Source of the DNA: an uncultured Campylobacter sp.
Lineage (GTDB): Bacteria; Campylobacterota; Campylobacteria; Campylobacterales; Campylobacteraceae
DNA: 64,000 bases
Assembly (NCBI GenBank): GCA_963527265.1
Contig: CAURQQ010000001.1
Span: forward strand, 88,613 to 152,612
Direction: 5' to 3'
The notes under the pieces are model-generated. The model made no database searches. It had not been told where the DNA came from and was given only the letters and a program-made list of their open reading frames with translations. Below, one piece after another: positions 3,462 through 64,000 of this stretch (positions are counted from its first letter, which is position 1; every line of letters starts with the position of its first letter). A program made the translations under genes and the position numbers.

Positions 3462-4467
3462 AACGTGCTTTTGCGGCGTGATAGAGATTTTTGACGGACT
3501 TTGGCATAAATGCACCCCGCCGCCTTCCTCTTGCGGGCGCGTAATTTTTATGAAGTGAGCTTTGCGCGCAAGATCTCTGCAAACCAAGCTGCGGCGCGGA
3601 ATTGCTCTGCGGTGCAGATTTAATACGGCGGCGCACAGGTTCTTGTTTTGCAGCACGGAATTTGCTCCGCTGCGAAACGATAAAATTTACGGCGCGATTT
3701 GGCGTCGCGGCGGGACTTGCTGTGCGGCGCATCTGTTTTGTGGGCCAGGTTTTGCGGCGGCCGATAAAATTTAAATATGGCGCAACCTAATTGTGAGGGG
3801 CGGCTAAATTTGAAGCGGGTGCACGATTAAATTTCAAGTGCTGCGGCAGGATTTTAAATTTGCGGATAAAATTTTAAGGCGCAAAATTACGCAAAGCAAA
3901 ATTTCAGCCGCGATTTACGAGCGCGGATACGCAAATGTCTGAAATTACACAGAGCCCCGGCGGTCTAAATTTTACCGCCGCGATCTTAAAATTTACGCGA
4001 CTAAAACTTACCGACTTGCGCGAGCCGCCGTTCGTCGCCAATCTTTGCTAGTTTAAATTTTGCCTTGCGAAATTTAGCTAACAAACTTAGCGGCGCAGGC
4101 GAGACGGCGGATTTTGCCTCACCAAATTTGAGCCATAAATTTAAATCGTAAATTTATGCCGTGATCCGTGCGTTAAAATTTAAAAGCTAAATTTAAAGCT
4201 CGGAAAGCGTGCGTGCCGTGCGAAGCGCTCGTTAAAATTTCAAAGCCGAAGCGTATGCGACCGCACGTGTCAAAATTTTAGAGCCAGAGCGCATACGGCG
4301 GCGATTGCGTTAAATTTAAAAATCGATCGGCGGGGCGCGCGGAATTTTAGGATTGATCCATTCGCGAAGCTGTGCGTCATCGATCTATTCGCAAAGCCGC
4401 GCCCATAGATTTTTTTCGCAGCGCCGCACGCCGAAATTTTAGAGCAAATTGGGGAGTACAAAGAGGG

Positions 4468-5064
4468 ATGCAACCGTTCGTACAAGGGGTTTTGATGGGG
4501 CTTGGCGTTAGTGTGCCGATCGGCCCGGTAAACGTACTGATAATGTCCTACGCGCTGCGAAGCTACACCAAGGCGCTGTGCTTGGGCCTCGGCGCTATGA
4601 GCGCGGATATGCTCTATCTAGCGCTATCGGCGTTTGGCATATCGCAGTTAGCCAAAATCCCGATCGTTTTTGCCTGCATATCGGTATTTGGCGCATGTTT
4701 TTTGCTCTACACGGCGTACGCGATCTGGCATGGCGCGACTCGCTCGGTGCAGCCTGTAAGCGTCGGGGCTTGCTCGGGCGTGGCGCTTTACGGCAAAGGC
4801 TTTTTGATAAATTTACTAAATCCATACGTCATTATGTTTTGGCTCAGCGTCTCTGCCGGCACCGCGCGAGCAGATTTCGCGCTTGCTCTTGCGGGGCTTG
4901 TAAGCGGAATTTTAGCTTGGATCACGCTTTTTCCGCTTGCGATATATCTAGCTCGTAGCAAGCTTCCAAACATAGCAGTGCGGGCATTTGCATATATCTC
5001 GGCGTTTATTTTGGTATTTTTCGCACTAAAGCTTTTATACGCTATAATTTTCGGTAAAATTTAA
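4468..5064 (+). CDS. LysE family translocator
   Basis: PIGPVN, GLGAMSAD and LLNPY..FW motifs; several TM helices; ATG at 4468; directly upstream of dapE. Confidence 0.9.
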   Translation: MQPFVQGVLMGLGVSVPIGPVNVLIMSYALRSYTKALCLGLGAMSADMLYLALSAFGISQLAKIPIVFACISVFGACFLLYTAYAIWHGATRSVQPVSVGACSGVALYGKGFLINLLNPYVIMFWLSVSAGTARADFALALAGLVSGILAWITLFPLAIYLARSKLPNIAVRAFAYISAFILVFFALKLLYAIIFGKI

Positions 5065-5079
5065 ACCAAAGGAAGGCTT

Positions 5080-61617: not shown

Positions 61618-62212
61618 CGCGCCTAGTGCAAGCGACGAGAGCCTTCCGCGCGTAGAGGGCATTAGGACGATCGCGAGCGACGATGAGATCGGGCTTGAGT
61701 GGCCTAGATATGACAGCAATACCGCCGTACTGGGCTTTGTCGTTTACCGAGCGCCTGCAAGCGGCGGCGAAGCCAAAAAGATCGCCACCATCGCAGATCC
61801 ATACTCCACTCACTACGTAGATACGAGGCTGCAACCGGGCACTTCGTATAAATACACGGTGCGCACATATGGCGCCAAGGGCGTTTCGGCTCCTTCTCCC
61901 GTCGCTATCGCAAGCACCGCGAAGATGCTAGAGTCCGTGCCGTTTGCACAGGCTATCTACGGGCTTCCGGGCCGCGTTAAGATCATCTGGCGTCCGCATC
62001 CGGATCTTCGCGTAAGCTCCTATCTAATCGAGCGCCGTCCTAAGGGAGGCGAGTCGTGGAGCACGATTAAAGAGGTTCGCGGCAGACTTAGCGCTGAATA
62101 TATCGACAATATCGATTATGGCGAAGGATACGAATACCGCATCACCGTCAAAACCGAAAACGGAGAGCTGTCCAAGCCTAGTGCAGTCATTGCCGCAGCG
62201 CAGGCAGAATAA
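61547..62212 (+). CDS. Fibronectin type III domain lipoprotein (FlpA-like)
   Basis: Lipobox-like AGGC; two FN3 repeats (W...GF.VYR...YVD..L.PGT.Y.Y.V); lies between rluD-like and trmB, as flpA does in C. jejuni. Confidence 0.82.
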   Translation: MKKFYRLTLSATLAILAGGCAMSSAPSASDESLPRVEGIRTIASDDEIGLEWPRYDSNTAVLGFVVYRAPASGGEAKKIATIADPYSTHYVDTRLQPGTSYKYTVRTYGAKGVSAPSPVAIASTAKMLESVPFAQAIYGLPGRVKIIWRPHPDLRVSSYLIERRPKGGESWSTIKEVRGRLSAEYIDNIDYGEGYEYRITVKTENGELSKPSAVIAAAQAE

Positions 62213-62215
62213 AGT

Positions 62216-64000
62216 TTGCCGAATTTCATAACCCAAAGCGTGAGCCTGCCGACGCTACCAGCTAGATTCGGCGAGGTCGAATTTTTAGAGACGGCGCGCG
62301 GCAGAAATTTAACGCTCGTGCGAACCAGAAGCTTTGATAGCGAGTTTTTTATCACCCTAAAACCCGGCGGCGGTAAAGTTATAGTAAAGGGCGAAAAGAT
62401 CACCAAGCCCGCTAAGATCGGCCATCTGCAGCGAGCGCTCGAAATTTTTAAAGAGCGCTTTTGCGGGCGGATCATCTCGCAGGCGTTTGCTTACAAAGAC
62501 AGCTCGCTTACCGAAAAAACGCCGCTAATTTTGGACGAGAATGAAATTTTATCCCTCGTAAAAAGCTCTAAATTTGATAAAATTTTCATCGAGATCGGCT
62601 TCGGCTCGGGCAGACACCTGCTTCATCAAGCGCGCTCGAATAAAGACGCGCTGCTAATCGGCATCGAAATTTACAAGCCCGCGATCGAGCAGGTCGCAAA
62701 GCTAGCGATCCGCGAGGGGTTGCAAAACATTGCGTTGATTGCCACCGACGCGCGGGTTTTGCTGAGCCTGCTTCCCGCGGGCTGCTTGCAGCGCGTATTT
62801 TTGCACTTCCCCGTGCCGTGGGACGACGCGCCGCACCGCCGCGTCATAAGCGACGAGTTTGCCTCGCAGATCGCACGCACGCTCGGACGCGGCGGTCGCT
62901 TCGAGCTTCGCACCGACAGCGAGGAGTACTTCCTCTACGCAATGCAAAAGCTCTCGCCCTACGTGCAGCGCAAAGCGGGCGAAATTTCGCACTTCAAAAA
63001 TCGCGACGCCGCCGTAGCGAGCAAATACGAGGATAGATGGCGCAAAATGGATAAAAATATCTACGATCTGATCTATGAGAACAAAACCGCGGGCCGTGGC
63101 GAGCCGCAGCAATGTGAGATGGAATTTTTAAAATTTGACGCGGCGGCAATCGCGCGAAATTTTAAAAATTTCACCTTCAAAGGCAAGGATTTTTTCGTGC
63201 ATTTTGAGGAAATTTTTTACTTGGACGCGCAAAAAAGCTTGGATGCGGGCAGCGCTTGCACCGCGGGTGGTGGCGTAAATTTTGATGCAGGCAGTGGCTC
63301 AAATTTTACCTCAAAAACGAACTCAAATCCTTGTGCAAACCTAGATGGCGGTTTTATCTCGTACGAAGCAGGCGCCGACAGCATGTCCGAAGCCATAAAT
63401 TTAAACGCAATGCGAGGAAAAAATTTAACTAAGCGCGCGAGCATGGATGAAATTTCAGTAGGCGGCGGCAAAATTTCAGCTACGACAGCGGGCGATAAAA
63501 TTTCAACTTGCGCGAATGCTACGCAAATTCTAAAAAAAGCAAGCACCCCACTGAATACAAACCGCGCGGATGAAGCGAACGCAAAAGACGGCGTAAATTT
63601 AAACGAGGATCACTTGAGCGCAAGCGCCGTAAATTTAGCGAGCGACATTCCCATCGCAGTAAGCGCTAAATTTAGCCGCCCCGCCCCGGGCGAAAAGCGC
63701 GCTTTAGCCTGCGAGCAGATCGCGACAAAGCAAGGCACGCAGATAAACAGCGCAGCAGCCGCGAGCGATGCACTAAACGCAAATAACCCGCTCGCAACTA
63801 TCGACGCAAGCAACGCGCTAAATTCTAGCGGCACGGAGGGTGCGCTTGCAGCTATCGATACGACAGGCGCAAGCACTACACCCGCAGCGATCGGCACAAT
63901 AGATACTAGCAACGCGTCGAATGCGGGCGGCTCATTCGTAGCGGTCCCAACGAAAGAAAGCGCCGCACCAAATGCGACCCACGCAGTCAGAGCAAACACA
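62216..64000 (+). CDS. trmB: tRNA (guanine-N7)-methyltransferase, running off the window end, with a >250-aa insertion
   Basis: Not in the ORF track. Manual translation from TTG 62216 (MPNF...) stays open to 64000 and shows IEIGFGSGRHL, GIEI, LHFPVPW, ELRTD and SKYE motifs. Confidence 0.92.
   Translation, partial: MPNFITQSVSLPTLPARFGEVEFLETARGRNLTLVRTRSFDSEFFITLKPGGGKVIVKGEKITKPAKIGHLQRALEIFKERFCGRIISQAFAYKDSSLTEKTPLILDENEILSLVKSSKFDKIFIEIGFGSGRHLLHQARSNKDALLIGIEIYKPAIEQVAKLAIREGLQNIALIATDARVLLSLLPAGCLQRVFLHFPVPWDDAPHRRVISDEFASQIARTLGRGGRFELRTDSEEYFLYAMQKLSPYVQRKAGEISHFKNRDAAVASKYEDRWRKMDKNIYDLIYENKTAGRGEPQQCEMEFLKFDAAAIARNFKNFTFKGKDFFVHFEEIFYLDAQKSLDAGSACTAGGGVNFDAGSGSNFTSKTNSNPCANLDGGFISYEAGADSMSEAINLNAMRGKNLTKRASMDEISVGGGKISATTAGDKISTCANATQILKKASTPLNTNRADEANAKDGVNLNEDHLSASAVNLASDIPIAVSAKFSRPAPGEKRALACEQIATKQGTQINSAAAASDALNANNPLATIDASNALNSSGTEGALAAIDTTGASTTPAAIGTIDTSNASNAGGSFVAVPTKESAAPNATHAVRANT

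Follow-up and report, generated by a model that had tools for sequence, protein, structure and literature searches.

RAATTY-dense, length-variable inserts in housekeeping proteins of a Campylobacter gracilis-complex genome, and retention of the motif at the DNA level

The stretch of DNA analysed here (64,000 nucleotides, G000:C1:88613-152612; hereafter the window) belongs to an uncultured Campylobacter genome of 2.08 Mb, 47.0% GC and 59 contigs, in which housekeeping genes and the spacers between them carry dense arrays of the hexamer RAATTY (R, A or G; Y, C or T). The genome is placed in the Campylobacter gracilis complex because the FolC relatives with 91–99% identity are those of C. gracilis and ~50 uncultured Campylobacter metagenome-assembled genomes (MAGs). 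RAATTY is found at 21,532 sites genome-wide (10.3/kb) and at 628 in the window (9.8/kb, i.e. the genome average). The inserts and spacers concerned are given below, with the number of RAATTY sites followed by that in shuffled sequence (300 dinucleotide shuffles per segment).

8480..9682 (edges approximate), minus strand: insert of ~400 aa in a RusA-like protein (host 650 aa, gene 8027-9979); 25 RAATTY, 4.7 shuffled.
41650..42039, minus strand: FolC insert of 130 aa (aa 112–241), in a Gln-Asn-Ser/Phe frame (gene ~40711-42303); 19 RAATTY (48.7/kb), 3.9 shuffled.
60679..61270, plus strand: insert of 197 aa in an RluD-type pseudouridine synthase, in an Asp-Lys-Ile frame (gene 60034-61617); 17 RAATTY, 2.9 shuffled.
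63218..64000, plus strand: first 260 of the 410 aa (net) of the TrmB insert (gene starts at ~62216 and ends ~630 bases past the window); 12 RAATTY, 1.5 shuffled.
58047..58442, plus strand: low-complexity C-terminal tail of 134 aa in a membrane protein (gene 57726-58445); 15 RAATTY, 3.5 shuffled.
55533..55950, plus strand: insert of ~130 aa in an AmiC-type amidase (gene 55272-57110); 9 RAATTY, 1.6 shuffled.
5884..5964, plus strand: insert of 27 aa in a DapE-like gene (5080-6258; 392 aa against 367 in the reference relative G012), of nearly fixed length in siblings.
7672..7827, minus strand: Ogt segment with a net insert of 26 aa (gene 7318-7881), of nearly fixed length in siblings.
1..291, no strand: motif-rich spacer; 7 RAATTY, 1.7 shuffled.
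3462..4467, no strand: motif-rich non-coding spacer; 22 RAATTY, 5.3 shuffled; 866–1269 bp in 26 loci, with indels of any length.
6259..7317, no strand: motif-rich non-coding spacer; 27 RAATTY, 4.6 shuffled; 1053–1076 bp in 28 loci.
14322..14834, no strand: motif-rich spacer; 14 RAATTY, 3.4 shuffled; one sibling locus covers the region.
57111..57725, no strand: motif-rich non-coding spacer; 12 RAATTY, 2.2 shuffled; 633–671 bp in 29 loci.

An initial annotation had described in-frame blocks of ~130–400 aa in folC, rluD, trmB, the RusA-like gene and the 57726 gene. The first four stand as described, while the last is a C-terminal tail rather than an internal block, and the AmiC, DapE and Ogt segments were missing from its list. 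Two of the names are provisional: 5080-6258 is called DapE-like from a reading of its sequence, and RusA-like serves as a lead only, the protein having no Pfam match and an Atlas score of 0.89. When the RusA-like protein is compared to a homolog of 292 aa (P0004), aa 14–89 and 514–648 align, with ~424 aa in place of ~70. The FolC family match is likewise split into two stretches, and the 527-aa RluD matches its families at aa 9–210 and 412–497. In the AlphaFold model of RluD a confident core is seen with the insert located between strands 205–212 and 420–426, and the pLDDT falls below 50 over residues 263–376. The low confidence argues only weakly for disorder, as the alignment lacks depth there. 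No Pfam match above cut-off was obtained for any of the four inserts scanned, nor do the variable lengths and weak constraint described below carry signs of an intein or inserted domain. Tandem Repeats Finder reports 15 rows, only four of them within the named inserts, which suggests that the insert repeat units are old and degenerate rather than perfect tandem arrays.

Insert lengths were compared across 107 sibling loci aligned to three regions of the window: the best 29 of 66 relatives for 1-11800, the 29 best-scoring loci for 54000-64000, and 49 of 61 loci for folC, with 12 partial or distant ones omitted. The RluD insert varies between 98 and 237 aa and takes 24 distinct lengths among the 28 loci, of 29, that span it, in frame throughout. 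The FolC insert ranges from 52 to 144 aa in the 47 loci, of 56, that span it, with the frame kept in all. Insert length is polymorphic among relatives. The AmiC insert (126–165 aa) is in frame in 29/29 loci, the RusA-like insert is 395–403 aa in 28/29, all in frame, and the tail of the 57726 protein, with tandem units of 27 and 12 bp, spans 90–142 aa in 29 loci. The RluD site in 31 of 31 aligned outgroup orthologs has no insert or a short loop of at most ~45 aa. The TrmB frame is 804 aa long compared to 391 in G012. Among 141 family genomes, the 25 of the complex, at 93–100% identity, have frames of 560–821 aa in 24 cases and of 430 aa, near a contig end, in one; the other 116 have 378–423 aa, except for 284 (contig end), 455 and 503 aa. 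Gene callers split or mis-start insert-bearing genes, as with P0001–P0003, which begin within or after the insert, a practical caution for annotation of such genomes.

RAATTY counts lie above the highest of the 300 shuffles in all 11 segments so compared (six inserts and five spacers), supporting the earlier claims that the motif exceeds composition and that the five named spacers share the texture of the inserts. Within the window the density is 15–49/kb in inserts, 20–27/kb in spacers and 7.1/kb in gene cores, the cores being themselves enriched (233 against 85.5 shuffled). The motif had been placed every 15–40 bp; it is indeed dense, but the mean spacing is one per 20–65 bp. The pattern extends over most of the window rather than all of it: the block 18001-34900 has 7.9 RAATTY/kb (133 against 78.5), and visual inspection alone showed no insert in it. 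This block is a polysaccharide gene cluster (GC 26–47%) with a lower motif excess; since many sibling alignments end at 35116, the locus varies among relatives and was probably acquired.

To place the window in a genomic context, the genome was compared with G012, a member of the same genus (GC 31.8%, 11.2 RAATTY/kb), of which 60 stretches (1.2 Mb) were sampled. The 825 reciprocal best hits left 775 pairs after identity and coverage filters, and an insert was counted if internal and at least 20 aa long. Such inserts occur in 88 of the 775 pairs here compared to 11 in G012 (27 against 2 at 100 aa or longer), adding 8,986 against 774 residues. About one in nine shared housekeeping proteins of this oral Campylobacter lineage has thus gained a long loop of variable length and apparently no function. 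Hosts include PriA (two inserts, 322 aa), RecG (384 aa), RsmD, QueC, NadD, KdsA, HisIE, HemA, SelA, HypF and TrmB. Spacers follow the same trend, with 43 of 237 syntenic gaps longer by at least 100 bp here and 3 longer in G012. Genome-wide, RAATTY stands at 18.5/kb in inserts and 6.8/kb in cores, both at a GC of 0.50. Insert load depends on conservation: 63 of 309 pairs below 60% identity carry inserts, but only 3 of 260 above 70%. G012 positions orthologous to insert sites have 20.2 RAATTY/kb (72 sites), compared to 12.9 at 665 other alignment breaks. In addition, 165 G012 proteins have no match in this genome, and the loss of a repair gene among them might conceivably have caused the expansion.

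The expansion is lineage-wide, near-neutral and frame-preserving, and proceeds by local duplication. Within the window, to which the indel analysis applies, every one of the 58 distinct indels in inserts has a length divisible by three, compared to 14 of 179 among spacer indels. With transitions outside the motif counted, inserts have a ratio of nonsynonymous to synonymous polymorphism (pN/pS) of 0.90 and cores one of 0.18. Stop alleles occur at 4 of 67 chances, with synonymous transitions occurring at 0.42. As the frame is kept in every spanning locus while pN/pS is 0.90, what counts is an intact full-length frame and scarcely the peptide. Of 36 merged insert events, 12 show microhomology of at least 4 bp (null 1.9), and in 6 RAATTY lies inside the microhomology (null 0.26). 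Compared to motifs of different inserts, those within one insert more often share a frame (0.74 vs 0.52) and have more similar flanks (identity 0.374 vs 0.305). A search of 79 inserts against the genome revealed no dispersed family; the 28 short non-self hits (24–102 bp) consisted largely of local repeats and isolated weak matches. The microhomology, the shared frames and flanks and the lack of a dispersed family together indicate that each insert was built in place, consistent with the slippage-type duplication proposed initially. The suggestion that permissive loops are the targets also fits, given the less conserved host proteins and the position of the RluD insert between strands.

Genome-wide, RAATTY is read in all three frames within inserts, with the Asn frame (AAT) used by 348 of 508 motifs. 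Asn-frame motifs give rise to many Asn-Ser-Thr/Ala runs, which might form N-glycosylation sequons where the host protein is exported, as is AmiC. The use of all three frames, the conservation of the motif in spacers and at synonymous sites and the near-neutral insert pN/pS agree with the initial view that what is shared is DNA and not a peptide.

RAATTY is retained at the DNA level. We counted sibling alleles at synonymous, insert and spacer sites only, taking the majority allele as ancestral. The siblings are species-level MAG consensus sequences of 85–97% identity, related and recombining, and p-values on their alleles are overstated for that reason. Motif-breaking alleles number 129 compared to 420 expected, while motif-creating alleles match expectation (54 vs 52). 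Among 1,003 hexamers, AAATTT shows the lowest polymorphism (0.33), the next A/T-only word being TTTAAA (0.55). A>G losses affect 76 of 845 motif sites (0.09) but 339 of 1,336 sites in other A/T runs (0.25), a deficit present in cores, inserts and spacers and in all three regions. Loss alleles segregate at lower frequency (57% of them singletons, vs 37%) and gains at higher (mean 0.158 vs 0.122, p ~0.02), with R/Y-keeping alleles neutral in this respect. Codon choice in cores points the same way: Ile is coded ATT in 1,709 of 1,877 cases (91%) where this completes RAATTY, and in 2,688 of 14,760 (18%) elsewhere. Both-strand counts are 28,980 for AAATTT and 6,286 each for AAATTC and GAATTT, falling to 1,896 for TAATTT, 840 for CAATTT and 146 for CAATTG; TAATTT and CAATTT are not conserved (0.90 and 1.2), and GAATTC is weakly so (with every change counted, 31 vs 34 at 18 sites). 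Thus exactly R-AATT-Y is favoured, and the force on the motif acts on DNA and follows the degeneracy of R and Y. Sites are clumped (variance/mean 1.7–2.2). Genome-wide pair distances peak at 8, 15, 24, 33, 36, 42 and 66 bp, which is partly a 9-bp step and not helical phasing.

In C. jejuni, DNA uptake requires methylated RAATTY (PMC10046745, which credits the finding to Beauchamp et al. 2017). The C. jejuni enzyme is listed as D12 class (PMC4294202), and in C. fetus the enzyme is kept in all isolates (PMC13436318). A D12-class adenine methylase is found family-wide, with 75 of the 77 genomes from this genus carrying it, and this, together with competence families in the present genome, agrees with the earlier link of the motif to CtsM and transformation. 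In L127, L133 and L134 it lies in a thrS–infC neighbourhood, as in C. jejuni. Family, ubiquity and neighbourhood suggest that it is CtsM. In the complex it lies between trpD and trpF in 7/7 genomes inspected. The best match in the present assembly has 26–30% identity; trpD and trpF are also missing, contig C58 ending inside trpE and C46 starting just past trpF. The apparent loss is therefore attributed to an assembly gap between C58 and C46 that would hold the end of trpE, trpD, the methylase and trpF. A D12 methylase on contig C26 (L032:1303-2355) was ruled out as the family-wide ortholog by its 26–30% identity; it sits in an AT-rich-looking island adjoining a long unnamed gene. Competence machinery is predicted to be present from ComEC, secretin, type II secretion ATPase, DprA and HhH_3 families, all in open frames without stops.

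Two methylase alleles occupy the trpD–trpF slot in the complex (L123:3869-5717 in G014, L124, L125; compare L135–L138). The native allele has a GC of 52% and no nuclease; the second, with GC 36% and ~68% identity to the native one, is followed by an EcoRI-family nuclease (PF02963) and has 97–100% matches in 12 genomes, with the context seen in three. TrpF is 274–451 aa beside the second allele, 591–602 aa beside the native one and 208 aa in G012. A mixture of the two alleles may be the cause of the assembly gap.

We propose, with a probability of roughly 0.6, that slippage at motif-rich permissive loops combines with DNA-level retention of RAATTY, for which uptake drive is the likeliest source. 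Permissive surface loops, protein ends and spacers lengthen and shorten as units of 6–234 bp are duplicated or deleted locally, in many cases between short direct repeats containing RAATTY. Selection holds the reading frame and avoids stops while barely seeing the amino acids, and the loops are probably tolerated, disordered passengers. A DNA-level force at the same time removes RAATTY-breaking alleles everywhere in the window. Acting together, both processes yield a conserved hexamer every 20–65 bp with fast-decaying GC-rich linkers and one dominant frame per insert. The retaining force may be tied to CtsM methylation, most likely through an uptake and recombination advantage of methylated self-DNA, a molecular drive of the kind assumed for the uptake sequences discussed below. 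RAATTY might furthermore seed and anchor duplications as ready-made microhomology, although it would not be sufficient alone, and a lineage-specific rise in duplication, or in tolerance of it, would also be needed. The higher motif density at G012 insert sites fits such a seeding role, though permissive loops could gain motifs and inserts independently.

Several observations weigh against this proposal. Methylase specificity is assigned only by orthology, for a gene that falls outside this assembly, and at ~10 sites/kb the uptake gain from one extra site must be tiny. R/Y-keeping alleles are also somewhat reduced (118 vs 170 expected), and the motif is clumped, unlike evenly spaced uptake sequences. 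The allele-frequency shift separates drive from a lower mutation rate poorly, as siblings are non-independent and include recurrent mutation and errors. RAATTY is absent from the microhomology of the large spacer indels (0 of 22), and minor indel alleles are short in 24 cases and long in 12. Finally, the model does not explain why this lineage expands. G012, G045 and G055 reach 10.9–11.7 RAATTY/kb without comparable inserts (none in 9 pairs for G045 and none in 12 for G055). Because relatives equally dense in the motif have few or no inserts, and the motifs gained through indels stay at chance level (22 of 36 carry net motif, compared to 21.6 at random; 47 vs 38 net motifs, p 0.08, small sample), the earlier suggestion that the motif drives the expansion is not borne out.

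A stronger form of drive would have uptake bias reward any RAATTY-adding allele, so that motif-bearing duplications spread and inflate proteins and spacers. The motif excess is indeed the highest measured (observed/expected, O/E, 2.96; 0.54–2.64 in 21 other samples), and the higher frequency of gains is as such drive would give. Cores here are poorer than those of G012 (6.8 vs 10.1/kb), inserts and spacers have 18–20/kb, and the total is still ~10/kb. Two samples from another genus, G081 and G107, combine higher GC (48.5% and 41.6%) with O/E 2.0–2.6 and RluD or TrmB inserts smaller than those here. This hints at an association of inserts with high GC and motif excess, although G045 does not fit (GC 40.9%, O/E 2.43, no insert in its 9 pairs). 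The chance-level motif content of indels, from which favouring of motif-adding indels draws no support in this small sample, and the preponderance of short minor alleles both speak against it. Compensation, in which inserts fill motif-poor genes, is ruled out: core density in insert-bearing genes is 7.7 vs 6.7/kb (medians, p 0.30), and sites are clumped. We regard strong drive as unlikely. The version in which the cores lost RAATTY sites while the GC of the lineage rose, and uptake and recombination favoured motif-bearing duplications, making the self-recognition mark a selfish driver of both genome and proteome growth, strikes us as doubtful; if true, thousands of disordered residues would have been added to PriA, RecG, TrmB, FolC, TrpF and others without a mobile element.

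Retention could alternatively come from methyl-directed biased repair restoring RAATTY after replication errors, as Elhai proposed for HIP1 (PMC4390886), which would lower the mutation rate without involving uptake. The deficit of losses in every class is as expected from this, and recurrent mutation at a lower rate would also raise the singleton share; yet gains do not exceed the neutral count, and singleton losses are down ~40% compared to ~80% for shared losses. Such a repair system is not known in Campylobacter, and this explanation is rated quite unlikely. A chromosomal role for the motif (nucleoid binding, or N6-methyladenine control of replication or transcription), with inserts as passengers, would account for conservation both inside open reading frames (ORFs) and in the DNA separating them, as for HIP1 (PMC5861425), and for the steady 9–10.5/kb across GC classes. 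The pair distances, however, show no 10.5-bp helical phasing by eye, and uptake is the only function shown for methylated RAATTY in the accessible text of PMC10046745; we consider such a role very unlikely. That the inserts are adaptive disordered segments, serving regulation, degradation, condensation or glycosylation, appears highly improbable. Their frame is kept in every sibling copy tested, the RusA-like, DapE and Ogt lengths are nearly fixed and the Asn frame is preferred, but pN/pS is near neutral, RluD and FolC lengths vary up to 2.4–2.8-fold, Pfam matches are lacking in the four inserts scanned and spacers have the same texture. Most sibling genomes being MAGs, an assembly artefact or a mobile element might also be suspected; the same inserts recur in dozens of separately assembled genomes as well as in G101, a genome in a single contig, all 58 insert indels keep the frame and the 79 inserts contain no dispersed family, leaving a negligible chance of either.

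The closest known system is CtsM/RAATTY of C. jejuni, with the same hexamer, a near-universal D12-class methylase in the family, competence families and a similar total density (27,514 strand-counts in strain IA3902, PMC4294202; 21,532 sites here). As GC is 47% here, the excess over composition is larger than in C. jejuni, with sites concentrated in inserts specific to this lineage. The accessible reports on that system treat how abundant the motif is, its methylation and its part in uptake, but neither a purging of alleles that break it nor inserts in proteins (PMC10046745, PMC4294202, PMC13436318). Neisserial DNA uptake sequences (DUS) and Pasteurellacean uptake signal sequences (USS) are non-palindromic 9–10-mers at 0.8–0.9/kb, 200–1,000-fold enriched and evenly spaced; their origin lies in point mutation and recombination rather than copying (PMC2817400). 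RAATTY resembles them in being over-represented, conserved and commoner in unconstrained sequence. In contrast, it is a palindromic 6-mer at 10/kb, ~3-fold enriched (O/E 2.96), clumped and multiplied by local duplication in inserts of 20–410 aa, and so departs from the DUS/USS form of non-palindromic 9–12-mers in 200-fold or greater excess with even spacing. Cyanobacterial HIP1 is likewise a hyper-abundant palindrome matched by an orphan methylase and conserved within and between ORFs with no peptide-level role; it is a GC-rich octamer, and protein-length expansion goes unmentioned in the accessible text (PMC5861425, PMC4390886). Here too, a palindrome that a methylase appears to match is conserved within and between ORFs. 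In motif retention the RAATTY system works like DUS/USS or HIP1, without being a DUS/USS member by form.

Rickettsia palindromic elements (RPEs), which had been invoked as a precedent, are ~150-bp dispersed families with a conserved peptide (PMC10969869). They also add in-frame segments to unrelated housekeeping genes, but the inserts here share no family, differ from gene to gene and vary in length, and the precedent does not hold. A shared stable hairpin of the RPE or miniature inverted-repeat transposable element kind was ruled out on the two inserts folded (rluD, z +0.47; folC, z −2.89), the folC value being explained by its 19 palindromic hexamers. Low-complexity insertions of Plasmodium proteins are similarly proteome-wide, Asn/Ser-rich, length-variable loops in housekeeping enzymes that arise by slippage; they differ in being eukaryotic and driven by AT-rich simple repeats, with no methylation motif.

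Deletion bias and selection normally prevent bacterial housekeeping proteins from growing long. Against this background, at least 88 proteins in the comparable part of the proteome bear loops that evolve almost neutrally, vary in length and reach 410 aa, a case of bacterial proteome inflation without a mobile element and a natural map of tolerated insertion sites. The sibling genomes moreover provide population-level evidence for site-by-site RAATTY retention, making the choice between drive, selection and biased repair, open for DUS/USS and HIP1, testable in a third system. No description of such inserts was found in the literature searched, with most subscription journals and all supplements outside the search, and the genome announcement for the type strain of C. 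gracilis does not mention them (PMC4574385).

Some further observations concern related genomes and the remainder of the window. The other-genus genomes L267 (G107) and L268 (G081) have independent TrmB inserts of 22–63 aa, and the RluD of G081 also bears an insert, one loop ahead of the site used here; these are cases of convergent expansion. Under maximal-order Markov models, the genome strongly avoids GTCGAC (0.16), AGATCT (0.37) and GGCC (0.29), possibly restriction sites. Lastly, the frames at 12193-12639, 13937-14305 and 61538-62212 are shorter than their G012 matches (148 vs 258, 122 vs 618 and 224 vs 409 aa, respectively); they comprise two probable gene remnants and a shortened fibronectin-type lipoprotein.

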